In this document: positions 33,355-64,000 of the stretch, one piece after another
Numbering within the stretch: the first letter of the stretch is position 1
Layout: every line of letters starts with the position of its first letter
Origin: Macrostomum lignano
Lineage: Eukaryota
Assembly: GCA_002269645.1 (NCBI GenBank)
Contig: NIVC01000087.1
Location: 62,001 to 126,000 of the forward strand
Length of the DNA stretch: 64,000 bases
Reading direction: 5' to 3'
Translations under genes and position numbers: made by a program
Notes under the pieces: generated by a model
What the model saw: the letters and a program-made list of their open reading frames with translations, nothing else
Told to the model about the DNA's origin: nothing
Database searches by the model: none

Positions 33355-38243
<4,889 letters not shown>

Positions 38244-39077: not shown

Positions 39078-39185
39078 ACACATCCAACACCCCCCAACAC
39101 TTCTAACACTTCCAATTCTCTATAACCCCTCGCACGCGCCGCAGGCGCGAAGGGTCTTTTTCTGTTACTAAAAATAGAACAAAAA

Positions 39186-39596: not shown

Positions 39597-39606
39597 CAAT
39601 ATAAAA

Positions 39607-40581: not shown

Positions 40582-40665
40582 GCTCCTGGGGGGAGGGTCT
40601 GGACACCAAAAACACAAAATTAAAAAATCAATAATTCAAACATTATATAAATTTGATTCTATAAA

Positions 40666-43445: not shown

Positions 43446-43478
43446 TTTTTAAGTTAAAAAAGTTTTTTATGTTAAAAA

Positions 43479-44150: not shown

Positions 44151-44173
44151 TTGTTAAATTTATTTTTTATAAA

Positions 44174-45399: not shown

Positions 45400-45409
45400 T
45401 TTTATATTG

Positions 45410-45820
45410 TTAAAATTTCTTTAATCCTTTTCCGCCTTTAATTGTGGTTAACATTTTATTAAAATCCTGAATATCTTTATTACTTATTGGCGCGCTTTTC
45501 GTGGGGGTTTCTGTTGGTTGTGCGGCTTGAGTTGTTTCCTGCGCTAGTTTCAAATCTTTTATTGCTTTTATTTGTGAGAGGGTGTCGTTAAATTCTCTCA
45601 ATTTCTTTAGTTCTTCTACTGCCCTCGCTGCTTCGATTCCGCCCTTTACAGCGTTTGTTATAGAACCTGCTGCAGAGCCTGCTTGGCCTATAAGACCCAT
45701 ATTGTCTTTAACGAAATTCGCTGTTGTACCAACCACATCAAAAAGACCCTCACCTCGGTATTCAACTGGGTCTCCCACCTGCAATTCGTTCAGATTTTGC
45801 ATATGTGTAACGTGTGTCAT
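45410..45820 (-). CDS. Duplicate of the 136-aa Polinton ORF
   Basis: One amino-acid difference from 39186-39596. Confidence 0.6.
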   Translation of the reverse strand: MTHVTHMQNLNELQVGDPVEYRGEGLFDVVGTTANFVKDNMGLIGQAGSAAGSITNAVKGGIEAARAVEELKKLREFNDTLSQIKAIKDLKLAQETTQAAQPTETPTKSAPISNKDIQDFNKMLTTIKGGKGLKKF

Positions 45821-46763
45821 TTTTTGTTCTATTTTTAGTAACAGAAAAAGACCCTTCGCGCCTGCGGCGCGTGCGAGGGGTTATAGAGAATTGGAAGTGT
45901 TAGAAGTGTTGGGGGGTGTTGGATGTGTAGTAGTAGGTAAAACGACGCCTACAGATCAGACCTTTTTTAATGGCCGTTTATAAGGTTCCAGAGGGGGGAC
46001 ACGAGGGGGGCTGATAAGATGGGTTGGGGATGGGTTATATTGCTTTTTTGGTAATGTGGGTGATTATGGGTGTTTATGGGTGATTAAGGGTGATTAGATG
46101 TGTTAAGGGTGTTTAGATGTGTTTTTTTATTTACCCCCGTGTCCCCCCTCTAGACCCTTAAAACGGCTGTTAAAAAAGTGCTCTGGGTCTGTAGGCGTCG
46201 TTTTACCTACTACTGGCGACCCCCCAGTCCTTGGACTGAACAGCCGTGCGCAGCCTTCAGATGCGCCGCGCAATAGCTGCGGCTACAAGTGTAATAAATA
46301 AACAGAAGGAAAACTTTTGTGACCCTTTTACACACTGATATATACATTCTTTGCCGCAATTCCAGATGATGAAGGACTCTGATAGATGCTAAAATCCTAC
46401 AGAGACAGTCTCTAGGGCAGCGTAACAAATTCAGCATGATAGTTACACTGCAGTTGTTTAATAATTCGTCAATCGCATTCTAAAATCTATGACAAGTTTT
46501 GCAACTCTGGGTGCAGATGTGTTCTTCGATTTTCTATGTTGCGGATTATTCATTCGTATCATGCAGTTTGCTGATGCGGTTTGCAGATAAGTTAAGTCAT
46601 ATCAATTGAACCATCAAGAACGCATGGCAACTGCTTTAATCCAGAGCCTAAGCAAGAGATCAATAACTGATATTTAGCATAAATTAAACTGATGCATCGT
46701 TCAAACCCCTCAGAGGAAAATCTCAGCCTTAGACTTGTCCAGCATACACGCGAGCCGCACAGA

Positions 46764-48286
46764 ATGCTACCGAAGGCGGCACTGGCGCTGCTGATCTGTT
46801 CCGCCGCCCTGGTGGTGGCAGAAACTGCAACGTCGTGCAGCCACCTGGACGACGATAGCCTGACCAATCCGCGCACAGTGATGGCCCACGGCTGCCAGCT
46901 GACTCTGTGGCAGGCCGCCTCGGACAGCAGCCGCCTGTGGGCTGAGCCGGCCTTCTGCGTGCCTGCAGCAGTTCAACCGTCTCGCAGCGACTTCTACAGC
47001 GACGCGGCTTCTGTCGACGTATTGGAGGACCCGGTTGGCGGCTACTCGTACGTGAATGTGCCGGTGATGCTGGCCAATCGGACTCTGCTAGATGAGGCAG
47101 TCCGTCAGCTGACTGCCCGCAGCGGCAGCGGGCCTGTGGTGTCCGCCGACTATCTGGAACTGGCCGGCGGTGTGGCCGTCAGCTCGCATCAGCCGGCGCA
47201 GTTTGTGGCGCGCGATTTCGTATGGAGCCAGTCGGATCAGACCGTCGGCCTGTTGAAGCTCAGCTGCGATGGCATCGGCTGCTCCTTGCTGGTGTGCGTT
47301 TTCATCGGCTCTTAGAGTTACAATGTGGGTGCGGTCAAGGACAACTAAATTAGAACGACACTGGACTGGAGGCCAGTTTTCACTGCACACTTCATTAGCT
47401 AGATAGAAGACGGGAATTAATTGAATGGGGCGCATTCCCCCATTGAGCCTTAGCTTCTCAGCATTCCCCCTTGAGCCTTGGCTTCTCAGCATTCCCCCTT
47501 GAGCCTTGGCTTCTCAGCATTTCCCTTTGAGCCTTGGCTTCTCAGCATTCCCCCTTGAGCCCTGGCTTCTGCGAGTGAATTGCAAGCAGTTAGTAAGGCT
47601 GTGCGGGAACTACATGTAAGTGTATATCCTTCAGCCTGCTGAACTTTCGATTTCAGCCAGATAATCCGAGCTGCAGGCGACTCAAAAGCTGCGGAGGCTC
47701 TGGAGCCGGTGTCTGTCGAAGCCGAGCTGCTGCACCCCTGCTCTCGCCGCCTACTGAAGTCCGACGCCATCAGTCAAGGTCAAGGCAGGCCAATCGCGCT
47801 GCAGCACAGCTCCTATCGACCTGTCCGAGGCCTCCCGCTGTCCGCTGGCCAGCTGGCACCGTGCCTGAATGTCACCGCGCTGCCGACATTCGAAACTCCA
47901 ATTGGCGGCGGCAACTGCAGCCTCCGGCTACACCAGTCGGAAGTCAATGGCACCAACGCATTCTACCTGGAGCCGCTGCTCTGCTACCTGGGTGAGGCCC
48001 TCATCCGGCGTGACTTCAACCGGCAGCTGAACTACCTGCAGCTGCAGGTGCAACTGCACAGCGATGAGGCACTCTCGGCTGCGATAGCCTGGCTGACTAA
48101 GAACGGCATGTCGGATGGCGAGCCGGCTGTGGCCTTCATGCGGCTGCTGGATCCGCGACTGTCAGTGCGGCAGTGGCCGAGTGACTCGGACAGTTTTGGA
48201 CGGCCGCAGGTGCTAATTGCTGCCGACGAATCAGCCCTGCTGCTCAGGATAGCCTGCGGCAGCTACCGCAACTGCTCCCGGCTGCG
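46764..48286 (+). pseudogene. Duplicated 5' half (exons 1-2) of the host FReD gene, lacking the FReD domain
   Basis: Mirror of 38243-36721; the downstream (TAC)n intron is cut at ~49000 and has no acceptor. Confidence 0.85.
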
Positions 48287-48290
48287 GTGA

Positions 48291-48997
<707 letters not shown>

Positions 48998-49000
<3 letters not shown>

Positions 49001-49179
49001 GGAATGGTAGTTTTAGATTATGCAAAGCTAGTAATGTATGAATACTATTATGATGTTATAAATAAAACCTGGCCAGATAACTATCCAATATATGCAGACA
49101 CCGATAGTTTGGTATTTAAGGTTGAAACAGATGATCGGACGGAGTCCGCGACCCTGCGGGGCGATCGGGCAAAGCCCGC
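48998..49179 (+). pseudogene. polB: pPolB fragment with catalytic motif C (YADTDS)
   Basis: TGMVVLDYAKLVMYEYYY...YADTDSLVFKVETD. Confidence 0.9.
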
Positions 49180-49703
49180 TGTGACGATATCTGGTCCGAG
49201 TTCGCGTGCTGACGGGCTGCTATTAAAGTAGTGAGTAAACACACAGTTAGTGGTGACGATAACTGACGGCGCCGATAATTCGATTACGGATTATGTATAT
49301 TTGCAGGTTACACATGTAGTGGTTATTGCTGATGCTAACTGGTAACGAACAATTGCAGTGTCAATGGAATGGCTTCGAAGATGACCTTAGTGGGTAACAC
49401 TACTAAATTGAGAGCGATCTTGAACTACTGTTTTTTTTAGTGTTTACTAAAATCAATCAGCGTTTACTAAAATCAAATTACTGGCGATAGGAACAGCAGC
49501 CGCACACCACGCTCAGTCTTCTCCGAAGCCACAGAATTCAAAATGTTAAATATAACTATTTAATGCAGTAAAACAAAGCATTGCTTACTATTTTCAATAA
49601 ACATAAAAGTGAAACCAATTGATATAAATAAAGTACATATTAAATACTTTTTAGTAGATATTAATCGACGAACTGGGAGAATAAAAGAACCACCAACGTC
49701 ACA
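49180..49703 (-). repeat. 3' LTR of Gypsy copy 1
   Basis: TGTGAC...GTCACA. Confidence 0.95.
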
Positions 49704-49717
49704 CTCGCCTCTCTCCC
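49704..49717 (-). promoter_or_regulatory. Polypurine tract (GGGAGAGAGGCGAG)
   Basis: Immediately upstream of the 3' LTR on the minus strand. Confidence 0.85.
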
Positions 49718-50104
49718 AAAAAAACAAAAAACGAAGCGCTTTCTACTTCAAGTAGTGATTTCGAACATTGTTTTTCAAAATGAATTTGGTACGATTGGGC
49801 CGCGTTGCAAAAATCGAATTTTTTGAACAATTGAAGATAATTTCGCAAAGTAGAACGATGGAGTAAAATTGAACATTCCAACGAAACAGCAACAAGGATT
49901 GATTGATTTTTAAACGCATGCGCAGCTAGCATTTGGATAGAGGAGTAAAATGTAATATTCGCGCGAACAAGGAAGCCTAATAACGAATAAGTAGTAACAA
50001 CTGAATATTGATAATTATGACAAAATTTACTGACAGCATCGACGGGACCCGTGCTGCAGATGCCTCAGACTCGAACACCGCGCCAAGAACTTGCACTGCG
50101 CGGC

Positions 50105-50285
50105 CAGCAGTTGATGAAGCGGCCGGCTGCCGCCAGCAGATGATGAAGCGGCCGACTGCCGCCAGCAGATGATGAAGCGGCCGGATGCCGCCAGCAGATG
50201 ATGAAGCGGCCGACTGCCGCCAGCAGTTGATGAAGCGGCCGACTGCCGCCAGCAGATGATGAAGCGGCCGACTGCCGCCAGCAGA
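50105..50285 (+). repeat. ~29-bp tandem repeat in the Gypsy 3' UTR (CAGCAGATGATGAAGCGGCCGACTGCCGC)x6
   Basis: Direct reading. Confidence 0.9.
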
Positions 50286-50521
50286 AACCCGCACCAGACA
50301 ACGGAACAACAGATAACCAGCCACACAGAGGAGCGCACAGCACGGCACCAGGCACCACACAACACAGCCAAACATAACCACGGCAACCCACCACAACGGC
50401 CAGCAACACAGAAAAAAACAAAGAGCAACCACACCGGGAGGGCACCGCCCCAAAGCAACAGAAGCCACCCCGGAGGAGCACATCACAGGCAGCAGACTAC
50501 ACCCCCCCGAAAGGGCAGGAA

Positions 50522-53500
50522 CTACCCCGACCCAGTGCTTCCCTTCCTGGAGCACCGATCGATAAAAGCCGCCAAGAACCTTGCCGGCCTGCGCACAACT
50601 CGACCAGACCTGGTGGTGATAGGCGGCCTCGCAGCAACGGATTGAGACGTCTGAGAACTGACGCTCTCAGTAACTGTAGTGGCAGGAGAATTGTCTGATT
50701 GTGGCTCCAGCTTGAGGTCACCAAGTTCCTCGCTTGGCAACTGATCTGACTCTGGCCGCGAGTGGCTCGAATCGGTCCTCGAGACCTGCTGCTTGACCTC
50801 CTCAGTGTCTTGACCTAGCTCTCGTCGACTTTCACCACCGACTGTCACCGCTACCGACCCTGAAACCCTACTAGCGGTCGTTCCAGACGTGGCCCCTTGA
50901 GCACTGTGGGCAGGAGGCTCTTCCGATGCCGGGTTCCGCCTGCTACTAGCAGGAATCGAACTTCCCTCCTCCGACTCCTCCCAGTCTCGATCTAGAGAAC
51001 GCCTCTGAACGCAGACTGTGGAGACGGACCTGTCAGTCGAGGGCTGCTGAGCCGGATTTGAAGATCGAGTCTCTCCCGGTGCGGATGCCTGTCCGAATTT
51101 GTCGATCAAATCGACGTACGCGGGCTTTCTCACACACCTTTTTAGCCTGTCGATGTTGTAAACATTGTGCCTTGGGTTCGGCATCCCGGTGTCTGACTCT
51201 GGGACAAGTCGGTAGTTTCTGTCAGAGATCTTTTCAATGATCTTGTACGGCCCCAACCACACCGCCGTGTCCAGACCCTTGTGGTCCGGGTTCAAGACCC
51301 ATACAAGCTCACCTTCCTTGAATACCGAATGGTGGGTGCCCCGATCGTAGTAGCGCTTCTGGCGCTGTTGGGCTTTACCGCGAATCTGTCTGGCCAAGGT
51401 CGAGACGGACACAAGCTCGTGATATAGTTTATGGGCGAACCTGTTAGGCTGAAACTGGTCCTGCGCTGGAGACCCATATATTAGGTCTAGAGGGAATACG
51501 AGCTCGCGCCCTAGGAATAGGCGCGCTGGCGTAAAGCCGGTGGACTCAGCTTCCGACGCTCTGACTGACATGCCAACGAGGCGGGCTGCCAGTGGCCAAT
51601 TGCACTCCCTGTCCTGACACACGGCGCGGATCTGGCTCTTTATTGTCTGAATCGCCCTTTCAACCTTGCCGTTGGCTTGGGGACGGCGAGCTACGATCCG
51701 AACTTTTCCGATTTCAAGGAGGCTAGTCAGCTCCTCCAATACATGATTGATGAAAGCTGTGCCATTGTCGGACACAATTGCTTCCATCGCCCCGTACCTG
51801 ACGACCCATTCGGTCAAGATTGTTTGAGCGGTGGTTTCGGCAGTTGTATCTGGTACCGGAATTATTTCGACCCAGCTGGTGAAGCGGTCAATAAGAACCA
51901 GCAGGTACCTGTTGCCATCTTGTTCTGAGAATGGGCCTGCATGGTCCACGTGCACCACTTGGCCTGGATAGCCAGCAAGGGTGGGCTGCATCGGCTCCTT
52001 ATTTTTCTTCTTGTTTTTCTTAGTTCGAGCACAAGTCTCACATTCAGAGATTATTCCTGTGACATGGGTTGTTAACGCAGTGATTTTGAAACGGTTCTTT
52101 AGTGCTTTCGTGGTTTTTGTTACCCCACTGTGATTCAGAGCTTGGTGATAATTCAAGACGACTTCATCGACGTTCGCCGTCTCGGGAACGACTAAGACAG
52201 AGCGAGAAGGCCTACCCTTTTTGGACGGTTTCTGGAGGTATAACAGGCCCTCATTTAGAGTGAGTCTCTCAAAATTTGAATACAATATTCGGACCTCACG
52301 ACTGCACGACTGAAGCTCTTCGCTACTTGGCTTTCGCTCATTCTTCACAGCTTCTACTAGCCTCATGATGTCAATTGAGGACTCCTGAGCTTGCCTAGCC
52401 CAGTTTTCTTCTTGCTGATCTGACCACTCTTCATCAGACTCGGAGTTGCTTCCAGCCTCTGATCTAATAGGGTGCCCCACTGCTCGGATTGCCGGCGTTT
52501 CAGCAGGCGTTGGCAGTTCAGTTTCCGTTTGCTTTTGATCAGTATTCCCAGAGAGCGCTTCCAGCTGCTGTGGGGTCTGAGCCTCAGCCTCCTTGTGGTC
52601 GGGCGTCAAATCGCAGTTCTCATTGCTCTCCGTCTGGATAGCAACAGTGCGTGTCTGAATCTTTTTCCCTCTGGCCGCCCGTACGACTACAGACGCACTT
52701 TTGGCGTTTCCAATGAATTTTTCCTTAAACTCCGGTATGTGGCTGCATGTTGGGCAGTCGTAATGATCCGCCCGGAACTTTGGGTTCCGGCTTAGAAAAT
52801 CGGCATTTGAATGTTCTTGTCCAGCCCTGTGTTTGACCTCAAAGTCGTATTCCCCCAGGCGCTCAAGAGGTGTTTGATCGATTTTGAAATCATAGGCTTC
52901 GATCGTGGCCAACCATTGGGCCAGCATGCCTGTGGCATGTCTCTTGGCGTGCAACCACTTCAACGCTGCCGCGTCAGTGCGCACGATGAAGGGATGATCA
53001 AGCAAATAGACTCTGAAGTTCTCGAGCATGATCACCACGCCCAAGAGCTCTCTCATCGTGGCACAATAATTTCGCTGCGCGGCGGTAAATTTTTTTGAAG
53101 CGTAGCTGATCACATTTTCCTGACCATCAGCACCTTGTTGCGACAAGACAGCGCCAACCCCCTCGAGGGAGCTGTCGCAGTCCAAGATAAATGACCCGGC
53201 ATTCGGTGAAAAGTCCGGGTAGGCTAGGACCGGAGGTGAGCAGAGGCTTGACTTCAGCTCAGTGAATGCTTTTTGGTGCTTTTCTTGCCAGGCAAACTTC
53301 TCCGCCCCCCTTGCCAGGCTGTACAGCGGTGCGGCTATCACTGAGAACCTGGGAACAAATTTTCTGTAATAATTACAGAAGCCTAAGAACGACAAGAGCT
53401 GCTTCTGATTACTCGGAGTTGGCCAATCGCGAACGGCATCGGTTTTCTCTGGGTCAGCTTCTATGCCTTGTCCGGATACCACGAACCCGAGGAACCGCAC

Positions 53501-56491
53501 TTTGTCCTTAAACAGTTCACACTTACTAGGTTTGATTTTTAAATTTGCTTTTTGCAACCTCCACAGCACTAGCGCTAAATTAACAATCATCTGATCATTA
53601 TCCCTTGCTTTCACAATGACGTCATCCAAGTAAATCAAGCTGACCTTAAGCAGCAGGGGTTGGAAGACCCGGTGCATCAACCGCGCAAAAGTTGCCGGGG
53701 CGGTCTTGATGCCGAACGGGACGACCTTCCACCTGAAGGTGCCTTGTGGGCAAGAAAAAGCAGTGAGGTCCCTGTCTTGCTCACGGATCCCGACTTGCCA
53801 GTAGGCGGATGTTAGGTCAAGACTGGAAAAGACCTGTGCCCCCGACAAGCTGTCAAACGACTCGTCAACCAGTGGTAGCGGGAAGCTACAAGGTTTGATC
53901 ACTTTATTGGTCTGTCGATAATCAACGCAAAGCCTTTGACTCCCATCTTTTTTCCGCACCAACACGATTGGGGACGACCACTCGGAGTCACATTCTTCTA
54001 TTACGCCACAATCCAGCAACTTGGAGATGTGCTTGTCCAGGAACTCCTTCTGTGCCGGTGTGGTCCTCCGAGAGGGCTGAAATACCGGTCGACAGGTCTG
54101 GTCTTTTAGCTCAATTGACATCTCTGTCAGCGACGTCTTTCCTAGATCGGTGTCGGACTTTGAAATTTGATTATGGAAGAAATTTAGCAACTTTATAGTT
54201 GTTGTCAGTTGTTGGGTTGTCAGATTTGATTTTCCCAGGCGAAACTCCCCTTTGAGCCACTCTGCAGTAGCTTTATCCGGGTAAGGCAATTTTTCTAACT
54301 GTTTTCCCAACCTTTCAGCGTTATTGATCGAAAAATCACGCTCATGTAGCCGAGTGTGAGTGACAACCTCATCAGCGCCTACATCCTGAAAAGAGGCCAC
54401 TTCTTGCCCCCTTTTTATTGATATTGTCTGATCTTCACTGTTAAGCAAACGGACCAGGACATGGCGGCCTGTACTAACACTGTCTAGGGACCTGGCCACC
54501 AGACATTCCCCATCTCCACGGAAAAGGCGCGGTCCAAGGACTCCTTGAGCCCCTGGGACCGCTTCAGCGACACGACTTGGGACAATAGCTTCCGATCGGG
54601 GGGCCATTTCTAGGTCACACGCTGATGTCACCCGCCTGACGCGGTAGAGACTACTGTCACCCTCAATGATCGGAATGGCCTCTCCATCCACTGTAGCTTT
54701 ACCATCGGCAATTAAGAGGTTGACCCTGAAGCTCTTGAGAAAGTCGAGACCGAGCAAGACATCAGACAGTCTTGTTTCCATGACTAAAAAGACTTGTGTC
54801 CTGGTCAGCTTTCCCAATGAAACCTCGCAACGCAAAGTGCCTAAGATTTCAGTTGACGTACCATTGAAAGCGGTAGCTGCGCGTCGCTGTGTGGACGGCT
54901 TGAAGACGTTGTTAATGGGATCAGCCTCGACTAGCTGATCCTTTACTCGGACTCCCATGACACTAGCGTTGGCACCAGAGTCTAGGCAGGCAATGATTCG
55001 ACTCTCACCGACATCCAGTTGCACGAAATAACTCGAATCGGTCTGGAACTCCGTGTCTTGCGCAGCGGACTGCTCACAATTCGGGGGCGAAGCCAACTCG
55101 CAGACGTCTAAGGCCCGATCACTAGGTTTTGCACTGTCGGCCACCCGACGAAACCTGACCCGGAGACCAACAATTTGATGGGGTGCCGCTCTGCCCCGAA
55201 GCTCTTGATCAAGCTGCGAGACATGCACAAAAAGATTGTCTCCCATCAGCGCTGACCGAATGAACCCATGTGACTGAAACCACTGGGTGATGACCCCGGT
55301 CTCCACTAGTTCAGCTCTTTGCTTCCCTGGCTCTCTTCCAGAGCGACCCCTGTGATTTAGCGGTGGTGGATGAGGGCAATCTGCGACCAGATGATCTGTT
55401 AACCCGCATCGATAGCATGCTCTAGGCGGTCGGCTGCTAAACTGAGCTCCCTTGCCATATGCCAATTGATGGGGCGGCGATGATTGTGTAACTCGAGTCT
55501 GCTTTGGATTGCCTACCCCGCTAACCACTGGCACTTCATTTTGAGACGCCCTGACTGATGTTTGGTTAGACTGCTCCACCAGTAGTTTTTCCAGTTCTTT
55601 AACCCTTGCTTCAAGCTCCGCAGTCTTGTCTGAACCCACAGAACGGACTTTAGCCAGCGCCGACTGCCCAGGGTTCAAGAGCTGTCGGACACCTGTAATC
55701 TCCCTGGCCTTCTTGGCCAGGTCAACAGAGGATAGCGAAGGATCTTCCCGACTGGCCAGCAGCAGCTTTTCGGCCAAGCTTCTATCTAGCAGCCCATGGC
55801 AGAACCGGGCCCGCACCAGTGGCTCAGACTCTTTGAGAGACAAGTTAGCAGCATGTGAAAGTCTTATTAGTCGATCAAAGTATTCTTGGACATCTTCAGC
55901 ATCATGTTGCTGAGCACTTGCTAGTTCCAGATAACTTTTGTCCTTCTCCGAAACATCCGTGTAGCGCAGGTCCAATGCTTTTAGTGCGACCTCAGCATCT
56001 TGCTTATGCAACTGGTTGTGAAAGCAATACTCCTGGCATTCAGGCGATAAAAGGGACAGCAAAATGGCTGACTGCTGCTCCTTGGGAATTTTGTGCGCCT
56101 CCACGTAAGTGCGAAATTGCGTTTGCCACAAGTCGAATCTCATTTTCGGCATGTAGGGTTGTGGGGGTCGGAGGCGGACATTACCACTGCCCTCAGACGC
56201 TCTTGGTGAGGTCGATGGTGCCGTTGGATTTGATGCACGATTTAAGCTATTGGCCAATACCTGGGAGAAGCTTTCTAAGAAATTCTGCATAGTAGCGGGG
56301 AGCAACGCTGCTTCAGCCGAACCAACAGCAGCTGATGCTCCATTTTCAGATTCATGAGCATTAGCTCCACCAGCAGCTGATGCTCCATTTTCAGATTCTT
56401 GAGCATTTGCTCCACCAGCATCATTATTAACAGAGCCACCATCTTCAAGACCAGCCACATTGGCTACCACTCCATCCTCGTTATTAGACAT
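50522..56491 (-). CDS. Gag-Pol polyprotein (Gag, CCHC knuckle, putative cold-shock domain, protease, RT, RNase H, integrase), 1989 aa
   Basis: CYRCGLTDHLVADC; CLDSGA; LCVDYR; YLDDVIV; LDCDSS; HQALNHSG..CETC; HVDHAGPF, SDNG, NGKVER. Confidence 0.97.
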   Translation of the reverse strand: MSNNEDGVVANVAGLEDGGSVNNDAGGANAQESENGASAAGGANAHESENGASAAVGSAEAALLPATMQNFLESFSQVLANSLNRASNPTAPSTSPRASEGSGNVRLRPPQPYMPKMRFDLWQTQFRTYVEAHKIPKEQQSAILLSLLSPECQEYCFHNQLHKQDAEVALKALDLRYTDVSEKDKSYLELASAQQHDAEDVQEYFDRLIRLSHAANLSLKESEPLVRARFCHGLLDRSLAEKLLLASREDPSLSSVDLAKKAREITGVRQLLNPGQSALAKVRSVGSDKTAELEARVKELEKLLVEQSNQTSVRASQNEVPVVSGVGNPKQTRVTQSSPPHQLAYGKGAQFSSRPPRACYRCGLTDHLVADCPHPPPLNHRGRSGREPGKQRAELVETGVITQWFQSHGFIRSALMGDNLFVHVSQLDQELRGRAAPHQIVGLRVRFRRVADSAKPSDRALDVCELASPPNCEQSAAQDTEFQTDSSYFVQLDVGESRIIACLDSGANASVMGVRVKDQLVEADPINNVFKPSTQRRAATAFNGTSTEILGTLRCEVSLGKLTRTQVFLVMETRLSDVLLGLDFLKSFRVNLLIADGKATVDGEAIPIIEGDSSLYRVRRVTSACDLEMAPRSEAIVPSRVAEAVPGAQGVLGPRLFRGDGECLVARSLDSVSTGRHVLVRLLNSEDQTISIKRGQEVASFQDVGADEVVTHTRLHERDFSINNAERLGKQLEKLPYPDKATAEWLKGEFRLGKSNLTTQQLTTTIKLLNFFHNQISKSDTDLGKTSLTEMSIELKDQTCRPVFQPSRRTTPAQKEFLDKHISKLLDCGVIEECDSEWSSPIVLVRKKDGSQRLCVDYRQTNKVIKPCSFPLPLVDESFDSLSGAQVFSSLDLTSAYWQVGIREQDRDLTAFSCPQGTFRWKVVPFGIKTAPATFARLMHRVFQPLLLKVSLIYLDDVIVKARDNDQMIVNLALVLWRLQKANLKIKPSKCELFKDKVRFLGFVVSGQGIEADPEKTDAVRDWPTPSNQKQLLSFLGFCNYYRKFVPRFSVIAAPLYSLARGAEKFAWQEKHQKAFTELKSSLCSPPVLAYPDFSPNAGSFILDCDSSLEGVGAVLSQQGADGQENVISYASKKFTAAQRNYCATMRELLGVVIMLENFRVYLLDHPFIVRTDAAALKWLHAKRHATGMLAQWLATIEAYDFKIDQTPLERLGEYDFEVKHRAGQEHSNADFLSRNPKFRADHYDCPTCSHIPEFKEKFIGNAKSASVVVRAARGKKIQTRTVAIQTESNENCDLTPDHKEAEAQTPQQLEALSGNTDQKQTETELPTPAETPAIRAVGHPIRSEAGSNSESDEEWSDQQEENWARQAQESSIDIMRLVEAVKNERKPSSEELQSCSREVRILYSNFERLTLNEGLLYLQKPSKKGRPSRSVLVVPETANVDEVVLNYHQALNHSGVTKTTKALKNRFKITALTTHVTGIISECETCARTKKNKKKNKEPMQPTLAGYPGQVVHVDHAGPFSEQDGNRYLLVLIDRFTSWVEIIPVPDTTAETTAQTILTEWVVRYGAMEAIVSDNGTAFINHVLEELTSLLEIGKVRIVARRPQANGKVERAIQTIKSQIRAVCQDRECNWPLAARLVGMSVRASEAESTGFTPARLFLGRELVFPLDLIYGSPAQDQFQPNRFAHKLYHELVSVSTLARQIRGKAQQRQKRYYDRGTHHSVFKEGELVWVLNPDHKGLDTAVWLGPYKIIEKISDRNYRLVPESDTGMPNPRHNVYNIDRLKRCVRKPAYVDLIDKFGQASAPGETRSSNPAQQPSTDRSVSTVCVQRRSLDRDWEESEEGSSIPASSRRNPASEEPPAHSAQGATSGTTASRVSGSVAVTVGGESRRELGQDTEEVKQQVSRTDSSHSRPESDQLPSEELGDLKLEPQSDNSPATTVTESVSSQTSQSVAARPPITTRSGRVVRRPARFLAAFIDRCSRKGSTGSG

Positions 56492-57237
56492 TCCAGAGCC
56501 TAATCACCTCGCCAAGCCGAGTTTTTTGCACCAGCAATGATCGGGACGACCAACCGAACAGGTGCAAGCAGGAAAAGAAGCAAAGGGGAAAGCAACCCAG
56601 ACAGCAGTTGGCGGGATCTAATCTAACCCTGACACAGACACAAACGCTATCTAAACCCGTCAACCTGGGACTACCTCCTATTTTTAAACAGGCAAACAGA
56701 CTCACCACACGCACACAGATTGGCTGACCGCTGGTGTGTAGTCGCAGTTGTCCGGCCAGTTAGACGTAACCAGCAGTTCGTTCCAAGCTGTTGCTAACAC
56801 GCAGAAGCAGCTCTGTTGACGCGCCAAGGGTCAATTGGGACTGGTGTAGGCCGAGGCTGGCAGCTGTGGCCAATTACTGTTGAGCTAGGCAGAGTGCAGG
56901 CCGCGTAGATTAATTGTCCTTGGGGTGGGTTGGCTGCGCTTGCACTGGATCCACTCGCGTTAAAGGACAGTGTAGGCTGACTAAGATTGCACTGATTCCG
57001 TTGGGCACAATTATTTTCGGCGCTCGGAGTAGCCAATTAGCCACAGAATGCGATAAGCAATGTACAGCTTGGTTGGTCTTGTGTTGCAATTGTACACGCT
57101 GGCTGGCTGGCTAGGGTTATGACTCACGATAAGAATTTTATGACAATTCCAATATTCACTTCTTGGCTGCCGCCTGGATAGCCCGGGCTTGTTGTTGACT
57201 TGTTTGGTGTTCAAACCGAACGGTAAGTAGCAGCCCG

Positions 57238-57254
57238 TCTCGGTGGGACCTCCA
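57238..57254 (-). promoter_or_regulatory. Primer binding site complementary to the tRNA-Gln 3' end
   Basis: TGGAGGTCCCACCGAGA is complementary to ...TCTCGGTGGGACCTCCA. Confidence 0.85.
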
Positions 57255-57260
57255 AAATTA

Positions 57261-57784
57261 TGTGACGATATCTGGTCCGAGTTCGCGTGCTGACGGGCTG
57301 CTATTAAAGTAGTGAGTAAACACACAGTTAGTGGTGACGATAACTGACGGCGCCGATAATTCGATTACGGATTATGTATATTTGCAGGTTACACATGTAG
57401 TGGTTATTGCTGATGCTAACTGGTAACGAACAATTGCAGTGTCAATGGAATGGCTTCGAAGATGACCTTAGTGGGTAACACTACTAAATTGAGAGCGATC
57501 TTGAACTACTGTTTTTTTTAGTGTTTACTAAAATCAATCAGCGTTTACTAAAATCAAATTACTGGCGATAGGAACAGCAGCCGCACACCACGCTCAGTCT
57601 TCTCCGAAGCCACAGAATTCAAAATGTTAAATATAACTATTTAATGCAGTAAAACAAAGCATTGCTTACTATTTTCAATAAACATAAAAGTGAAACCAAT
57701 TGATATAAATAAAGTACATATTAAATACTTTTTAGTAGATATTAATCGACGAACTGGGAGAATAAAAGAACCACCAACGTCACA
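57261..57784 (-). repeat. 5' LTR of Gypsy copy 1
   Basis: Direct repeat of 49180-49703. Confidence 0.95.
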
Positions 57785-57788
57785 CCGC

Positions 57789-58503
57789 GAACCAAAGGTT
57801 CGATGTCTATAAAGATATGGAAAAAATTAAGGATACATTGGACACATCAGACTATCCGGATAACCATCCCTTAAAATCGAATCAAAATAAGAAAGTTGTA
57901 CTTAAAATGAAAGATGAATTAAATAGCAAAATCATAACTGAGTTTATAGCAATAAGATCAAAATGCTATGCATTTAAAGTTTTAGGACAGGAGGGAGAGG
58001 TAAAAAAAATAAAAGGGGTATCAAGGGCAGCAGTTAAAAAGATAACATTTGATGATTATAAAAACGTACTTTTAGATTACCTTAATACAATTGAAAATTA
58101 TCATGCTCCACAATATCGATTAAATTCAGATAAGCATCAGATGTTTGTCATCGAGACAGATAAAAAAACATTAAGTCCATTTGATGATAAAAGATATTTA
58201 GATGATAAAATTAAAACATATCCATATGGTTTAAAAGATGAGATAAAAAATATGATAAAAGATAAAAAACAAAAAGAAGATATAATAAGCAAATATAATG
58301 AATACAAAGAGGCAATAAATAATTATTATTACGATTGTGATTGTGAATCCGAATGTGAATGTGAATATAATACATTTCTAGAATATGAAAAAGATGTAGA
58401 TAATTATTATGCAACATTTCCAAAAGAACTTAAAAAATTAAACAAGGAAAAAGTCTTGGATAACTGGAAGAGATTAACAGAAAAATTACTTGTAAAAAAC
58501 TAA
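57789..58503 (+). pseudogene. polB: pPolB C-terminal part (thumb), continuing the 48998-49179 fragment
   Basis: DVYKDM..DTSDYP..HP...NKKV.LKMKDE...EFIAIRSKCYA..KIKGV..KKTLSPFDDKRY...TYPYG. Confidence 0.92.
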
Positions 58504-58547
58504 AGCATGTAATTGTTTAAGCATAATATCCATTTCAATTTCATATT

Positions 58548-58892
58548 TTATAGAACACCAATTATCCTCACAGTCGGCAGGATCGGTCGAAGACCGCGAC
58601 CCTTCGGGCGGTAACTTAAACATTCTTTTACTTTTTTCCTAAGTACTTTTATTCGTCTAATCAATCTATCTATTTCGTTTTCAATTACTGTTTCAGCATA
58701 AGCAATCGCAGCTTTTATAAAACGCTTTCTTTTTTCCAACTCGTATCGGATGGGAAACATATCATCCCCATAATCACTATATTTCTGAGATATAATTATA
58801 TTTATTTTTTTATTAATATCTTTAATTTCACGCTCTTTAGTGATAAGGATTTTTATTGTCTCCATTTTCTTATAAAAAAATTTAGTCATCAT
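58548..58892 (-). CDS. Polinton orphan ORF (114 aa)
   Basis: ORF track; AT-rich viral-like codon usage. Confidence 0.5.
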   Translation of the reverse strand: MMTKFFYKKMETIKILITKEREIKDINKKINIIISQKYSDYGDDMFPIRYELEKRKRFIKAAIAYAETVIENEIDRLIRRIKVLRKKVKECLSYRPKGRGLRPILPTVRIIGVL

Positions 58893-59214
58893 CGCCAGCC
58901 TCCCAAACAGAAGCCAATTTTACAGTCCGGTCACTCTTTTTATTATTTGTTTGTTTTAGTTTAAATTGCAATCCACCCTCGGTGCTGTATTTTATAATGA
59001 ACGCTTTAGGTTTATTAATAACTAAAACTGGAAAATTTTTAACATCATTCCCACTTAGACATAGTATTATTTGCCCATCTAATTGTAAAAATATCGATTG
59101 AAGTCCAATAAATTTAACCTGTCTCAAACATATAATATTATATTCTTTATTCTCCAACATATTGGGTGTGAGATAATTAATCACATTAGAATCGGTTTTG
59201 AACCAGCTCTCCAT
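58882..59214 (-). CDS. Polinton orphan ORF (110 aa)
   Basis: ORF track; abuts or overlaps the next ORF. Confidence 0.55.
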   Translation of the reverse strand: MESWFKTDSNVINYLTPNMLENKEYNIICLRQVKFIGLQSIFLQLDGQIILCLSGNDVKNFPVLVINKPKAFIIKYSTEGGLQFKLKQTNNKKSDRTVKLASVWEAGDDD

Positions 59215-59240
59215 TTTTAATCTAAAAAAATAACAAAAAA

Positions 59241-59762
59241 ATGAAAGACATTTATGAATGTAATAAATGTAATGTGACTATGCATAGAGCTCAAACAGCA
59301 AACGGAGATATATATCATATGTGTTATTCATGTTCTAAAATATATCAATTTGAAAAAACAAAAAAGATTGAAAACTCATATTACTATTTTAAAAACACAA
59401 TTTTAAGAAATCTTACAAGAGACATATCTGATCCAATTTTAATTCCCGGAAATAATGTTTATTTATATAACAACTTTTCCCATTTAAATAAAGGAAAGGG
59501 ATTAAGTTCGAAAGACGCTGAAAGGATTTTAATTTTAGTTGGATATTATTTTAATTTTCTTATGCGAGAGAATACAAAGTTTATAAGGATAGGTAACATA
59601 CCTAACGAAATGTTACTGAAAAAGTCATTGGAATTTTTATGTATTGATAAAAAATTTAAACCTAGGATCACAAGAGAATTACCACTTTGGGAAGAATATA
59701 TAACATATGCATTAGAAAAACTGTACTTTGTACACATGCTTTGCATGATTAAACAACATTAA
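59241..59762 (+). CDS. Polinton orphan ORF with an N-terminal Zn ribbon (173 aa)
   Basis: CNKC..x14..CYSC. Confidence 0.55.
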   Translation: MKDIYECNKCNVTMHRAQTANGDIYHMCYSCSKIYQFEKTKKIENSYYYFKNTILRNLTRDISDPILIPGNNVYLYNNFSHLNKGKGLSSKDAERILILVGYYFNFLMRENTKFIRIGNIPNEMLLKKSLEFLCIDKKFKPRITRELPLWEEYITYALEKLYFVHMLCMIKQH

Positions 59763-59796
59763 GTTCTACAGTGCTACCTGACCGAACCGAAGGTTC

Positions 59797-62700
59797 TGTG
59801 ACGTTGGTGGTTATTTTATTCTCCCAGTTCGTCGATTAATATCTACTAAAAAGTATTTAATATGTACTTTATTTATATCAATTGGTTTCACTTTTATGTT
59901 TATTGAAAATAGTAAGCAATGCTTTGTTTTACTGCATTAAATAGTTATATTTAACATTTTGAATTCTGTGGCTTCGGAGAAGACTGAGCGTGGTGGGCGG
60001 CTGCTGTTCCTATCGCCAGTCATTTGATTTTAGTAAACACTGATTGATTTTAGTAAACACTGATTGATTTTAGTAAACACTGAAAAAAACAGTAGTTCAA
60101 GATCGCTCTCAATTTAGTAGTGTGACCCACTAAGGTCATCTTCGAAGCCATTCCATTGACACTGCAATTGTTCGTTACCAGTTAGCATCAGCAATAACCA
60201 CTACATGTGTAACCTGCAAATATACATAATCCGTAATCGAATTATCGGCGCCGTCAGTTATCGTCACCACTAACTGTGTGTTTACTCACTACTTTAATAG
60301 CAGCCCGTCAGCACGCGAACTCGGACCAGATATCGTCACATAATTTTTGGAGGTCCCACCGAGACGGGCTGCTACTTACCGTTCGGTTTGAACACCAAAC
60401 AAGTCAACAACAAGCCCGGGCTATCCAGGCGGCAGCCAAGAAGTGAATATTGGAATTGTCATAAAATTCTTATCGTGAGTCATAACCCTAGCCCAGCCAG
60501 CCAGCGTGTACAATTGCAACACAAGCCCAACCAAGCTGTACATTGCTTATCGCATTCTGTGGCTAATTGGCTACTCCGAGCGCCGCAAATAATTGTGCCC
60601 AACGGAATCAGTGCAATCTTAGTCAGCCTACACTGTCCTTTAACGCGAGTGGATCCAGTGCAAGCGCAGCCAACCCACCCCAAGGACAATTAATCTACGC
60701 GGCCTGCACTCTGCCTAGCTCAACAGTAATTGGCCACAGCTGCCAGCCTCGGCCTACACCAGTCCCAATTGACCCTTGGCGCGTCAACAGAGCTGCTTCT
60801 GCGTGTTAGCAACAGCTTGGAACGAACTGCTGGTTACGTCTAACTGGCCGGACAACTGCGACTACACACCAGCGGTCAGCCAATCTGTGTGCGTGTGGTG
60901 AGTCTGTTTGCCTGTTTAAAAATAGGAGGTAGTCCCAGGTTGACGGGTTTAGATAGCGTTTGTGTCTGTGTCAGGGTTAGATTAGATCCCGCCAACTGCT
61001 GTCTGGGTTGCTTTCCCCTTTGCTTCTTTTCCTGCTTGCACCTGTTCGGTTGGTCGTCCCGATCATTGCTGGTGCAAAAAACTCGGCTTGGCGAGGTGAT
61101 TAGGCTCTGGAATGTCTAATAACGAGGATGGAGTGGTAGCCAATGTGGCTGGTCTTGAAGAAGGTGGCTCTGTTAATAATGATGCTGGTGGAGCAAATGC
61201 TCAAGAATCTGAAAATGGAGCATCAGCTGCTGGTGGAGCTAATGCTCATGAATCTGAAAATGGAGCATCAGCTGCTGTTGGTTCGGCTGAAGCAGCGTTG
61301 CTCCCCGCTACTATGCAGAATTTCTTAGAAAGCTTCTCCCAGGTATTGGCCAATAGCTTAAATCGTGCATCAAATCCAACGGCACCATCGACCTCACCAA
61401 GAGCGTCTGAGGGCAGTGGTAATGTCCGCCTCCGACCCCCACAACCCTACATGCCGAAAATGAGATTCGACTTGTGGCAAACGCAATTTCGCACTTACGT
61501 GGAGGCGCACAAAATTCCCAAGGAGCAGCAGTCAGCCATTTTGCTGTCCCTTTTATCGCCTGAATGCCAGGAGTATTGCTTTCACAACCAGTTGCATAAG
61601 CAAGATGCTGAGGTCGCACTAAAAGCATTGGACCTGCGCTACACGGATGTTTCGGAGAAGGACAAAAGTTATCTGGAACTAGCAAGTGCTCAGCAGCATG
61701 ATGCTGAAGATGTCCAAGAATACTTTGATCGACTAATAAGACTTTCACATGCTGCTAACTTGTCTCTCAAAGAGTCTGAGCCACTGGTCCGGGCCCGGTT
61801 CTGCCATGGGCTGCTAGATAGAAGCTTGGCCGAAAAGCTGCTGCTGGCCAGTCGGGAAGATCCTTCGCTATCCTCTGTTGACCTGGCCAAGAAGGCCAGG
61901 GAGATTACAGGTGTCCGACAGCTCTTGAACCCTGGGCAGTCGGCGCTGGCTAAAGTCCGTTCTGTGGGTCCAGACAAGACTGCGGAGCTTGAAGCAAGGG
62001 TTAAAGAACTGGAAAAACTACTGGTGGAGCAGTCTAACCAAACATCAGTCAGGGCGTTTCAAAATGAAGTGCCAGTGGTTAGCGGGGTAGGCAATCCAAA
62101 GCAGACTCGAGTTGCACAATCAGCGCCGCCCCATCAATTGGCATATGGCAAGGGAGCTCAGTTTAGCAGCCGACCGCCTAGAGCATGCTATCGATGCGGG
62201 TTAACAGATCATCTGGTCGCAGATTGCCCTCATCCACCACCGCTAAATCACAGGGGTCGCTCTGGAAGAGAGCCAGGGAAGCAAAGAGCTGAACTAGTGG
62301 AGACCGGGGTCATCACCCAGTGGTTTCAGTCACATGGGTTCATTCGGTCAGCGCTGATGGGAGACAATCTTTTTGTGCATGTCTCGCAGCTTGATCAAGA
62401 GCTTCGGGGCAGAGCGGCACCCCATCAAATTGTTGGTCTCCGGGTCAGGTTTCGTCGGGTGGCCGACAGTGCAAAACCTAGTGATCGGGCCTTAGACGTC
62501 TGCGAGTTGGCTTCGCCCCCTAATTGTGAGCAGTCCGCTGCGCAAGACACGGAGTTCCAGACCGATTCGAGTTATTTCGTGCAACTGGATGTCGGTGAGA
62601 GTCGAATCATTGCCTGCCTAGACTCTGGTGCCAACGCTAGTGTCATGGGAGTCCGAGTAAAGGATCAGCTAGTCGAGGCTGATCCCATTAACAACGTCTT

Positions 62701-64000
62701 CAAGCCGTCCATACAGCGACGCGCAGCTACCGCTTTCAATGGTACGTCAACTGAAATCTTAGGCACTTTGCGTTGCGAGGTTTCATTGGGAAAGCTGACC
62801 AGGACACAAGTCTTTTTAGTCATGGAAACAAGACTGTCTGATGTCTTGCTCGGTCTCGACTTTCTCAAGAGCTTCAGGGTCAACCTCTTAATTGCCGATG
62901 GTAAAGCTACAGTGGATGGAGAGGCCATTCCGATCATTGAGGGTGACAGTAGTCTCTACCGCGTCAGGCGGGTGACATCAGCGTGTGACCTAGAAATGGC
63001 CCCCCGATCGGAAGCTATTGTCCCAAGTCGTGTCGCTGAAGCGGTCCCAGGGGCTCAAGGAGTCCTTGGACCGCGCCTTTTCCGTGGAGATGGGGAATGT
63101 CTGGTGGCCAGGTCCCTAGACAGTGTTAGTACAGGCCGCCATGTCCTGGTCCGTTTGCTTAACAGTGAAGATCAGACAATATCAATAAAAAGGGGGCAAG
63201 AAGTGGCCTCTTTTCAGGATGTAGGCGCTGATGAGGTTGTCACTCACACTCGGCTACATGAGCGTGATTTTTCGATCAATAACGCTGAAAGGTTGGGAAA
63301 ACAGTTAGAAAAATTGCCTTACCCGGATAAAGCTACTGCAGAGTGGCTCAAAGGGGAGTTTCGCCTGGGAAAATCAAATCTGACAACCCAACAACTGACA
63401 ACAACTATAAAGTTGCTAAATTTCTTCCATAATCAAATTTCAAAGTCCGACACCGATCTAGGAAAGACGTCGCTGACAGAGATGTCAATTGAGCTAAAAG
63501 ACCAGACCTGTCGACCGGTATTTCAGCCCTCTCGGAGGACCACACCGGCACAGAAGGAGTTCCTGGACAAGCACATCTCCAAGTTGCTGGATTGTGGCGT
63601 AATAGAAGAATGTGACTCCGAGTGGTCGTCCCCAATCGTGTTGGTGCGGAAAAAAGATGGGAGTCAAAGGCTTTGCGTTGATTATCGACAGACCAATAAA
63701 GTGATCAAACCTTGTAGCTTCCCGCTACCACTGGTTGACGAGTCGTTTGACAGCTTGTCGGGGGCACAGGTCTTTTCCAGTCTTGACCTAACATCCGCCT
63801 ACTGGCAAGTCGGGATCCGTGAGCAAGACAGGGACCTCACTGCTTTTTCTTGCCCACAAGGCACCTTCAGGTGGAAGGTCGTCCCGTTCGGCATCAAGAC
63901 CGCCCCGGCAACTTTTGCGCGGTTGATGCACCGGGTCTTCCAACCCCTGCTGCTTAAGGTCAGCTTGATTTACTTGGATGACGTCATTGTGAAAGCAAGG
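59797..64000 (+). mobile_element. Ty3/Gypsy copy 2 (5' LTR 59797-60340, PBS ~60348-60364, gag-pol running off the window)
   Basis: Reverse complement of copy 1 with scattered substitutions and a 20-bp LTR duplication. Confidence 0.95.
61112..64000 (+). CDS. Gag-Pol polyprotein of copy 2, partial (Gag to RT YLDD)
   Basis: ATGTCTAATAAC at 61112; not in the ORF track because no stop falls inside the window; differences include D>E, S>F, T>I. Confidence 0.92.
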   Translation, partial: MSNNEDGVVANVAGLEEGGSVNNDAGGANAQESENGASAAGGANAHESENGASAAVGSAEAALLPATMQNFLESFSQVLANSLNRASNPTAPSTSPRASEGSGNVRLRPPQPYMPKMRFDLWQTQFRTYVEAHKIPKEQQSAILLSLLSPECQEYCFHNQLHKQDAEVALKALDLRYTDVSEKDKSYLELASAQQHDAEDVQEYFDRLIRLSHAANLSLKESEPLVRARFCHGLLDRSLAEKLLLASREDPSLSSVDLAKKAREITGVRQLLNPGQSALAKVRSVGPDKTAELEARVKELEKLLVEQSNQTSVRAFQNEVPVVSGVGNPKQTRVAQSAPPHQLAYGKGAQFSSRPPRACYRCGLTDHLVADCPHPPPLNHRGRSGREPGKQRAELVETGVITQWFQSHGFIRSALMGDNLFVHVSQLDQELRGRAAPHQIVGLRVRFRRVADSAKPSDRALDVCELASPPNCEQSAAQDTEFQTDSSYFVQLDVGESRIIACLDSGANASVMGVRVKDQLVEADPINNVFKPSIQRRAATAFNGTSTEILGTLRCEVSLGKLTRTQVFLVMETRLSDVLLGLDFLKSFRVNLLIADGKATVDGEAIPIIEGDSSLYRVRRVTSACDLEMAPRSEAIVPSRVAEAVPGAQGVLGPRLFRGDGECLVARSLDSVSTGRHVLVRLLNSEDQTISIKRGQEVASFQDVGADEVVTHTRLHERDFSINNAERLGKQLEKLPYPDKATAEWLKGEFRLGKSNLTTQQLTTTIKLLNFFHNQISKSDTDLGKTSLTEMSIELKDQTCRPVFQPSRRTTPAQKEFLDKHISKLLDCGVIEECDSEWSSPIVLVRKKDGSQRLCVDYRQTNKVIKPCSFPLPLVDESFDSLSGAQVFSSLDLTSAYWQVGIREQDRDLTAFSCPQGTFRWKVVPFGIKTAPATFARLMHRVFQPLLLKVSLIYLDDVIVKAR

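Follow-up and report, generated by a model that had tools for sequence, protein, structure and literature searches.

A close described parallel to the locus reported here is found in the EMALE virophages of the protist Cafeteria burkhardae. There, EMALEs contain 91% of the Ngaro type 1 retrotransposons, a preference that ORF1 appears to determine, and the portions of this source available to us mention no hairpin target (PMC8547959). Preferences for palindromes are known from other systems, again as far as the accessible portions of these sources go: the REP palindromes of bacteria are the target of IS1397, whose transposase is of the DD(35)E type (PMC1525189), in vitro retroviral integrases show a preference for the stems of cruciforms beside the loops (Katz 1998, cited through PMC3279379), and in plant LTR elements the palindrome preference is slight (PMC6911290). 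In the literature searched, some of it accessible in part, we found no case of natural structure- or palindrome-directed LTR-retrotransposon integration in Polintons.

Here we describe a window of 64 kb from Macrostomum lignano (the whole stretch of DNA that was analysed), in which two copies of one Gypsy family lie in a single Polinton (Table 1). As with Ngaro in EMALEs, a GC-rich retrotransposon sits in an AT-rich, pPolB-bearing endogenous virus, with adjacent double insertions, one of them in pPolB. Ngaro, however, uses a tyrosine recombinase and its preference extends over 80 copies, whereas the present element is an animal Gypsy with a DDE integrase, inserted at palindromes, with n=2. With IS1397 and ISKpn1 (IS3 family) the locus shares a DD(35)E enzyme akin to retroviral integrase and a family of short GC-rich palindromes (PMC1525189), but the targeting by these bacterial elements is fixed and proven by experiment, while the eukaryotic case has a variable register and is a candidate only. 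The sites lie in stems beside loops as in the cruciforms of Katz; those were in plasmids in vitro, and these are natural insertions at 5-6-bp stems. Finally, fungal mitochondrial double-hairpin elements are also short, GC-rich, possibly mobile two-hairpin repeats in AT-rich DNA, but they are found between genes or in rRNA genes, in contrast to the DNA-type C(GNA/AAA)G triloops seen here in a Polinton and in frame in pPolB (PMC10085805).

Table 1. Features of the locus, in window coordinates.
Feature	Position	Strand	Remarks
Polinton, left part	38795..44802	.	fold-back terminus, pX-like gene, pPolB piece, four further ORFs
Single mini-hairpin	39135..39149	+	loop GCA; upstream of first Polinton ORF
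pPolB N-terminal piece	40666..42399	+	endonuclease VII-like domain; truncated
Inverted duplication, 4.2 kb	44803..49000	-	of 36016-40203 (99.6%); splits Polinton
pPolB piece with motif C (YxDTDS)	49001..49135	+	left break at duplication junction; P0001 aa 951-994
Double mini-hairpin unit A	49136..49165	+	30 bp; loops GGA and TGC; in pPolB frame
Unit B, first hairpin	49166..49179	+	loop AAA; left of copy 1
Target-site duplication CCGC, left	49176..49179	+	
Gypsy (Ty3/Mdg4) LTR retrotransposon copy 1	49180..57784	-	full length
Copy 1 3' LTR	49180..49703	-	
Polypurine tract	49704..49717	-	
Gag-Pol ORF	50522..56491	-	single ORF, 1989 aa; zinc knuckle, cold-shock domain, protease, RT, RNase H, integrase, SH3-like domain, tail
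Cold-shock (OB-fold) domain in Gag	55124..55285	-	UNR/CSDE1-like; Pfam CSD E=1.5e-4, 22 bits (below 27-bit cut-off)
Primer-binding site	57237..57254	-	begins TGG, 6 nt inside 5' LTR
Copy 1 5' LTR	57261..57784	-	524 bp; identical to 3' LTR
Target-site duplication CCGC, right	57785..57788	+	
Unit B, second hairpin	57788..57804	+	GAACC-AAA-GGTTC core; right of copy 1, beside its 5' LTR
pPolB C-terminal piece	57802..58503	+	P0001 aa 994-1135
Double mini-hairpin unit C	58584..58610	+	loops GAA and TTC; no insertion
Diverged double mini-hairpin unit D	59722..59749	+	loops TTT and TTT; no insertion
Hairpin E	59783..59796	+	GAACC-GAA-GGTTC; abuts copy 2 5' LTR
Gypsy copy 2	59797..64000	+	continues past window end; 5' LTR 59797-60340; ORF open from 61112

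Copy 1 has the TG...CA LTRs (524/524 bases identical to each other), primer-binding site, polypurine tract and short target duplication of a Ty3/Gypsy element, and its primer-binding site is one that we take to be for tRNA-Gln. The polyprotein has the order Gag-PR-RT-RH-IN and Ty3 Gag-Pol is its best PDB match. An earlier note on this DNA reported that copy 1 duplicated CCGC at the 3' arm of the hairpin CGGGC-AAA-GCCCG, and this holds: the duplication is exactly 4 bp, lengths of 3, 5, 6 and 7 bp failing to match, and the left CCGC is made up of the last three bases of that arm plus one extra base. On the right side, the extra base is the first base of another hairpin that the note did not list, CGAACC-AAA-GGTTCG (57788-57802). 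Copy 2 runs in the opposite orientation and its LTR does start, as was also claimed, directly after GAACC-GAA-GGTTC; this position, 2008 bp from the first insertion site, is intergenic and no ORF is disrupted.

Between the copies, the LTRs differ by 6 substitutions and a 20-bp insertion and the interiors by 11 substitutions and two one-base indels over 3658 bases. We consider it very unlikely that copy 2 and its flank derive from copy 1 by rearrangement or mis-assembly, with a single insertion event. The adjoining 4.2-kb inverted duplication, the similar 5' flanks of the two copies and the far end of copy 2, projected near 68,400 and so outside the window, would fit such an origin, but copy 2 begins precisely at the TG of its LTR, without the bases duplicated by copy 1, and 17 substitutions (6 amino-acid changes among them) separate the copies, yet the LTRs of copy 1 are identical. 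The proposal of separate events is therefore confirmed: the copies represent two independent integrations by a single Macrostomum-type Gypsy family, in a Polinton that is scrambled. The note also predicted GTTC at the far end of copy 2. Any 4-bp duplication there is GTTC by definition, so this prediction probes normal insertion only and not targeting.

The recipient element has the protein-primed PolB of a Polinton or adintovirus, in three pieces, and copy 1 interrupts this gene. Its fold-back terminus (38795-39077) is AGTAGTAG-ended; the opposite true end and a 6-bp duplication were not found in the window. The pX-like gene is below cut-off (E=1.4e-4), and a candidate double jelly-roll capsid protein (42321-43445) has no Pfam or PDB match and a single-sequence model with pLDDT 30. 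Among the ORFs scanned there was no rve integrase, packaging ATPase or protease; the element is partial and may extend beyond copy 2. For the ORF at 59241-59762 an atlas search gave weak leads. The window is repeat-dense and rearranged, and the Polinton, at ~30% GC, lies beside many kilobases of 55-65% GC.

The hairpins at the insertion sites belong to a family whose double mini-hairpins, ~30 bp long, carry C(GNA/AAA)G loops on stems that covary. Seven are found in 2.2 kb, against about 0.07 expected (by hit segment, 5 against 0.07 and 2 against 0.0; 0/200 shuffles each), while the same count with shuffles finds none in Gypsy and a chance level in host DNA. Across three aligned units, three of the five stem pairs changed on both sides, a pattern reached in 18/500 shuffles; with weak statistics from 3 units, this describes a short GC-rich repeat whose two adjacent stems are kept by covariation. 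The hairpin units cover 129/8195 Polinton bases (1.6%) and 114/2187 (5.2%) of the segment hit, in agreement with the claim that they are a minute share of the AT-rich element. Two units form a 20-codon in-frame insert in pPolB, which is edged by a 3-bp direct repeat and missing from 132/132 measurable homologues (~50% identity). The family is conserved and also occurs without Gypsy. Rfam gave no matches in 38700-64000, and the ORF at 58548-58892, which overlaps unit C, has no homologues.

Most probably, these hairpins act as small repetitive elements that belong to the Polinton. They may have been selected for stability as ssDNA in strand-displacement replication, and the ends of genes and a loop of pPolB would be places that tolerate them. 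According to the accessible part of PMC13037366, this class of loop has extreme ssDNA stability and is used at phage and plasmid priming sites. That said, mini-hairpins as a general Polinton trait were rejected (10 observed and 9.2 expected over 31 loci and 259 kb, some overlapping). Hairpin-coded inserts in other pPolB proteins (e.g. P0040) were not supported: 13/14 inserts were unremarkable and P0017 reached 10/200 shuffles, in a test of low power whose positive control itself reached 35/200.

How unusual are the two positions? Both sites are within 1-3 bp of the end of a hairpin with a stem of at least 5, for which P = 2.5e-5 to 1.3e-3 under uniform insertion, in a test framed after seeing the sites, with n=2 and one duplication verified (copy 1). 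The statement that two insertions 2 kb apart hit hairpins more than chance allows is thus upheld under a uniform model, with P about 1e-4 to 1e-3. The palindrome GAACC-N3-GGTTC occurs twice in 64 kb (0.06 expected, 0/100 shuffles), and both occurrences adjoin a 5' LTR, at distances of 4 and 0 bp and oriented as the element is. The register differs, with copy 1 at the first hairpin of a unit and copy 2 at the second, so that the sites are one duplication length (4 bp) apart relative to the shared palindrome and there is no fixed insertion register; the duplication begins 1-2 bases into the 3' arm, past the loop. Both copies of the family in the 64-kb window lie in the one Polinton, no Gypsy was found at the 31 other pPolB loci, and the window holds no tRNA genes that could serve as targets. 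Nearest-neighbour folding of the flanks is modest (z -0.2 to -1.9, with one at -3.4; two flanks folded separately). Stems of 5-6 bp seldom extrude as cruciforms without supercoiling.

On a rival account, the Gypsy is an ordinary one, biased towards GC or bendability, that came down twice in a graveyard of repeats, and the hairpins were hit simply as the chief GC islands in AT-rich DNA. The left flanks are indeed 73% and 60% GC against a background of about 30%, hairpin units make up 18-41% of such GC-rich positions, and a strong GC-weighted null raises P to as much as 0.02-0.05 (a cruder GC-threshold null gives 0.18 x 0.41, about 0.07). The window is repeat-dense and rearranged, and the case was selected for looking unusual. 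The bias would have to be steep, however, and both copies lie in the ~30% GC Polinton despite many kilobases of GC-richer DNA nearby, each abutting one of the only two GAACC-N3-GGTTC palindromes in the window. We regard this account as somewhat unlikely.

The explanation that we prefer, tentatively and short of even confidence, is that the Gypsy family inserted twice into a broken Polinton, each time at a mini-hairpin unit that is GC-rich and palindromic, in its arm or at its base, through a local target preference and a neutral landing zone rather than a defence system. The intasome would act on duplex DNA, and the palindromes may be favoured as the most distortable, cruciform-prone GC islands of the AT-rich element, as with retroviral integrases in vitro; the broken Polinton would retain the insertions because they carry no cost to the host. 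Three units (A, C and D) and the 39135 hairpin were not hit, which counts against this explanation. With n=2, the observations give hints of a preference for these hairpins.

A dedicated Polinton specialist, in which a Polinton or host protein binds GAACC-N3-GGTTC and tethers the integration complex, perhaps via Gag, as Ngaro ORF1 seems to do for EMALEs, is unlikely. It would account for the identical palindrome 5' of both elements and for a single Polinton holding both copies, 2 kb from each other, with none elsewhere in 64 kb, and it has precedents, in the portions accessible, in Ngaro in EMALEs (PMC8547959) and IS1397 at REP (PMC1525189). Yet the palindrome offsets differ by 4 bp, a domain profile search found no dedicated targeting domain in Gag-Pol, and no match between the element and its flanks exceeds 9 nt, with nothing guide-like. 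Moreover, M. lignano has numerous sister clades (137 families), and the accessible part of their description does not mention Polinton targeting (PMC12801592). Three short motifs of the element were not found in 5 supplements of that paper, in which long cells are shortened, and an exact-identity search found 0/10 window proteins in the protein collection.

The protein itself also bears on the suggestion that the extra OB-fold or the integrase C-terminus guides integration. The OB-fold is, judging from sequence, a real cold-shock domain: all five PDB matches of the region are cold-shock proteins (best E=0.014), although a single-sequence fold of the Gag region has pLDDT 36. It occupies the part of Gag that follows the zinc knuckle and precedes the protease. 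Two Ty3/Mdg4 polyproteins of M. lignano share it, P0029 and P0030 (BOX15 gene models), which are each 55% identical over the alignment and have the same single-ORF layout, yet belong to different families. The literature searched has no mention of a cold-shock domain in Gag of such Gypsy families. A genome-chaperone role beside the zinc knuckle is simpler than targeting. Of the OB-fold idea the domain stands; its role as a targeting module is not supported, and it is a candidate specificity determinant at most. The integrase C-terminus is an ordinary SH3-like domain followed by a disordered tail, with no chromo match at E<=1 and hence no sign of a chromovirus, and a guiding role for it is not supported. 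The tail ends in a TTRSGR motif, shared with P0029, which presumably resembles the LANA nucleosome anchor; the accessible part of PMC9040877 describes this anchor without mention of retrotransposons.

A reading in which the element works against Polintons, its cold-shock domain or integrase tail picking out hairpins in single-stranded form while the Polinton DNA replicates, is exceedingly unlikely. This would make use of the domain, of loops in a class with extreme ssDNA stability (PMC13037366, in the part accessible) and of the interruption of pPolB by copy 1. A clean direct 4-bp duplication straddling two adjacent hairpins implies, from integrase chemistry, that both duplex strands were cut; such a duplication would not be expected if concerted integration had used a single strand in folded form. 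The domain sits in Gag, where both sister families have it, pPolB is broken elsewhere too by other rearrangements, and copy 2 lies between genes, so the label 'anti-Polinton' is not warranted. From the interpretation in the earlier note, the two events, the hairpin arms and the rare, non-random hairpins are kept, guidance by ssDNA, targeting by the OB-fold or integrase tail and an action against Polintons find weak or no support, and targeting as a trait of the whole family is a hypothesis from n=2. The note overlooked that the hairpins form a repeated double element with an in-frame occurrence in pPolB, and that one palindrome adjoins the 5' LTR of either copy.

A bolder and doubtful proposal is that a lineage of flatworm Gypsy elements captured a cold-shock domain and has specialised on Polintons, recognising ultra-stable double mini-hairpins that spread through Polinton genomes, even in frame in the polymerase gene. 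If true, this would be a case of three nested layers (Polinton, hairpin element and retrotransposon) and a eukaryotic counterpart of REP-targeting insertion sequences. Two findings hold whether or not there is targeting: C(GNA/AAA)G double mini-hairpins as a family of Polinton elements, with an in-frame pPolB insertion, and a cold-shock domain carried by the Gag proteins of three Macrostomum-type Gypsy families. Should a count across the whole family bear the targeting out, an animal Gypsy integrase would have a defined target of 13-30 bp, and the nesting of host, virus and transposon could be tested in a genus that serves as a transgenic model.

Both insertions of one Gypsy (Ty3/Mdg4) family into the Polinton lie no more than 1 bp from the end of a GC-rich mini-hairpin. 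The observation in the earlier note is real, and there is more to it than the note described. Copy 1 (minus strand, 49180-57784) is a complete element with a single ORF of 1989 aa, 524-bp LTRs that are identical to each other and a 4-bp target-site duplication, CCGC. Copy 2 (plus strand) starts at 59797, immediately 3′ of GAACC-GAA-GGTTC, and extends past the window end; its far end is predicted at about 68,400. Between the two copies, the LTR shows 6 substitutions and a 20-bp difference, and 3658 bases of the internal region show 11 substitutions. As copy 1's own LTRs are undiverged, copy 2 did not arise by duplication of copy 1 after its insertion, and the two are separate events, as had been proposed. 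No further LTR copies occur elsewhere in the 64-kb window. The nearest named relatives of the Gypsy protein, from 3 matches among 7999 candidates scored, come from Macrostomum lignano: two gene models, with 54% and 48% over the searched region, which make a Macrostomum species the probable host.

The host of both copies is an AT-rich Polinton-like element that runs from 38795 onward; animal host DNA is also present in the window. The Polinton is split by a 4.2-kb inverted duplication (36016-40203 and 44803-49000, 99.6% identity), and pPolB is left as three pieces, matching residues 44-481, 951-994 and 994-1135 of protein P0001. The duplication terminates in an (AGT)n tract, and a few bases at the 49000 junction are common to it and the pPolB piece; this junction suggests template switching or mis-assembly. 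At the Polinton end lies a fold-back of 283 bp (38795-39077), whose two AGTAGTAG-ended arms share ~85% identity across some 80 bp. An endonuclease VII-like domain lies inside pPolB (42115-42280, Pfam E=1.4e-7); enzymes of this kind cleave cruciforms, and one may speculate about a connection to the mini-hairpins. A truncated ORF at 44174-44869 resembles, by eye, a zinc-ribbon or HNH-type nuclease, with no match in Pfam, and a putative capsid-like ORF (42321-43445, minus strand) is cut off at the junction with the N-terminal piece of pPolB.

Positions of the mini-hairpin units and of annotated host and Gypsy features
Feature	Position	Strand	Description
Host cell factor 1-like gene	23800-31352		Host, upstream of the Polinton; Kelch and fibronectin III domains
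Unit A	49136-49165		Double mini-hairpin
Unit B	49166-49179 + 57788-57804		Double mini-hairpin, interrupted by copy 1
Unit C	58584-58610		Double mini-hairpin
Unit D	59722-59749		Double mini-hairpin
Hairpin E	59783-59796		Corresponds to the second hairpin of unit B
Cold-shock domain, UNR-like	55124-55285	minus	Between zinc knuckle and protease

The mini-hairpins form one family. Units A to D each comprise two adjoining 5-6-bp stems with three-base loops, some 30 bp in total; every loop is GNA, AAA or a complement of these, and the closing pair is C-G. AAA-loop mini-hairpins are similar to GNA ones in behaviour. GNA mini-hairpins are described as having exceptional stability when the DNA is single-stranded, and as occurring at phage and plasmid priming sites (PMC13037366). 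Hairpins of this loop class with stems of at least 5 bp, the class being defined post hoc on data already seen, number five in 57785-59796 against a shuffle mean of 0.07 (0/200 shuffles), two in 49001-49179 (0/200) and one in the left part of the Polinton (26/200). The Gypsy has none and host DNA one in 32 kb, the chance level. Three of the five first-stem pairs are altered on both sides across three aligned units (18/500 shuffles), and standard folding energies are just modestly unusual. Units C and D and hairpin E lie at or near the 3′ ends of ORFs, and may also act in forming transcript ends.

The pPolB homologues run unbroken across the position of units A and B. Among 178 proteins patterned, the first motif was missing from 30 and the second from 16 by the patterns used; in 109 of the 132 measurable homologues motif C is 25 residues from the next conserved motif (maximum 36). 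Units A and B (49136-49179 and 57789-57804) form 20 extra stop-free codons, in frame just past motif C. Because the 132 measurable homologues lack this stretch and a 3-bp direct repeat bounds it, we take the two units to be an insertion into pPolB; the kept frame hints that it was probably tolerated before the Gypsy arrived. In P0040, a pPolB relative with 58% identity, there are two inserts that keep the frame, and one of them contains a six-residue unit that repeats; a peptide-level test of little power over 14 other pPolB inserts gave no support for hairpin coding of these. The 31 other pPolB loci, taken from genome contigs, have no general excess of mini-hairpins (10 observed, 9.2 expected). 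One of them, the unrelated contig L029, has two against 0.07 expected: a C(GAA)G hairpin overlapping the pPolB stop codon (1902-1918) and another that opens an in-frame double mini-hairpin (33-64), in a stretch of 55 residues compared with 27-40 in 31 of 34 homologues (two have 48 and one is a mis-hit). As a single locus of 31, at a contig edge, this is only a lead.

Could the coincidence be chance? Hairpin units account for 1.6% of all Polinton bases and for 5.2% of those in the segment hit. Under uniform insertion the probability of two such sites lies between 2.5e-5 and 1.3e-3, according to the tolerance and region chosen; a steep GC preference as the null raises it to as much as 0.02-0.05. 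GAACC-N3-GGTTC occurs twice in the 64 kb (0.06 expected), in element orientation just 5′ of each 5′ LTR, at 4 and 0 bp, and is absent from the 31 other pPolB loci. Against a preference, there are two events, with the duplication verified for one, the chance tests are post hoc, the insertion register is variable and four further hairpin sites are empty. Summed over mechanisms, we nonetheless consider a genuine preference for these palindromes fairly probable.

As to mechanism, the earlier note had proposed guidance by single-stranded or cruciform hairpins and a possible action against Polintons. A direct 4-bp duplication arises only if both strands of a duplex are attacked at staggered positions, and that of copy 1 spans two adjoining hairpins, which would be incompatible with integration into a folded single strand. 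Guidance by single-stranded DNA is unlikely, and so is an anti-Polinton action. Nothing found shows host benefit. Most simply, the intasome would favour a distortable palindromic duplex or a transient cruciform; retroviral integrases favour cruciform stems beside loops in vitro (Katz 1998, as described in PMC3279379). The main alternative is that a protein on the shared GAACC-N3-GGTTC palindrome tethers the integration complex.

An OB-fold domain or the integrase C-terminus had been suggested as the guide. The extra domain is of the cold-shock type (Pfam E=1.5e-4, below the cut-off; 5/5 PDB matches are cold-shock proteins), and its position between zinc knuckle and protease suggests a nucleocapsid-type chaperone. 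It is found in both M. lignano relatives, not in a fish relative, and is common to three Macrostomum-type Gypsy families; possibly it was captured from a host gene. The integrase carries an SH3-like domain in its C-terminal part, with no chromodomain match. At the tail end (50570-50620, minus strand) a TTRSGR motif is kept in P0029, a Macrostomum lignano Ty3/Mdg4 polyprotein, the rest of the tail being unalignable; we take it to be reminiscent of arginine-anchor nucleosome tethers. A part for the cold-shock domain in targeting is still conceivable, because the Gag-like ORF1 apparently decides the targeting of Ngaro elements (PMC8547959).

Neither "hairpin" nor "palindrome" occurs in a term search of the adintovirus paper (PMC8502044), and in literature listings and abstract openings, subscription papers and bioRxiv supplements aside, Gypsy elements at Polinton hairpins, such hairpins in Polintons and a cold-shock domain in Gag are unreported. 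Polinton-class viruses are known to harbour retrotransposons, with Ngaro in EMALEs at a preference of up to 91% (PMC8547959), and MULEs and LINEs nested in those of Halocafeteria (10.64898/2026.07.28.741278); cryptophyte PLVs contain elements flanked by direct repeats (PMC12220804). Also known are palindrome targeting by a DDE enzyme, IS1397 (PMC1525189), a slight palindrome preference of plant LTR elements (PMC6911290) and double-hairpin elements in fungal mitochondria (PMC10085805). From the two events recorded here, targeting of Polinton mini-hairpins by a Gypsy element is plausible.
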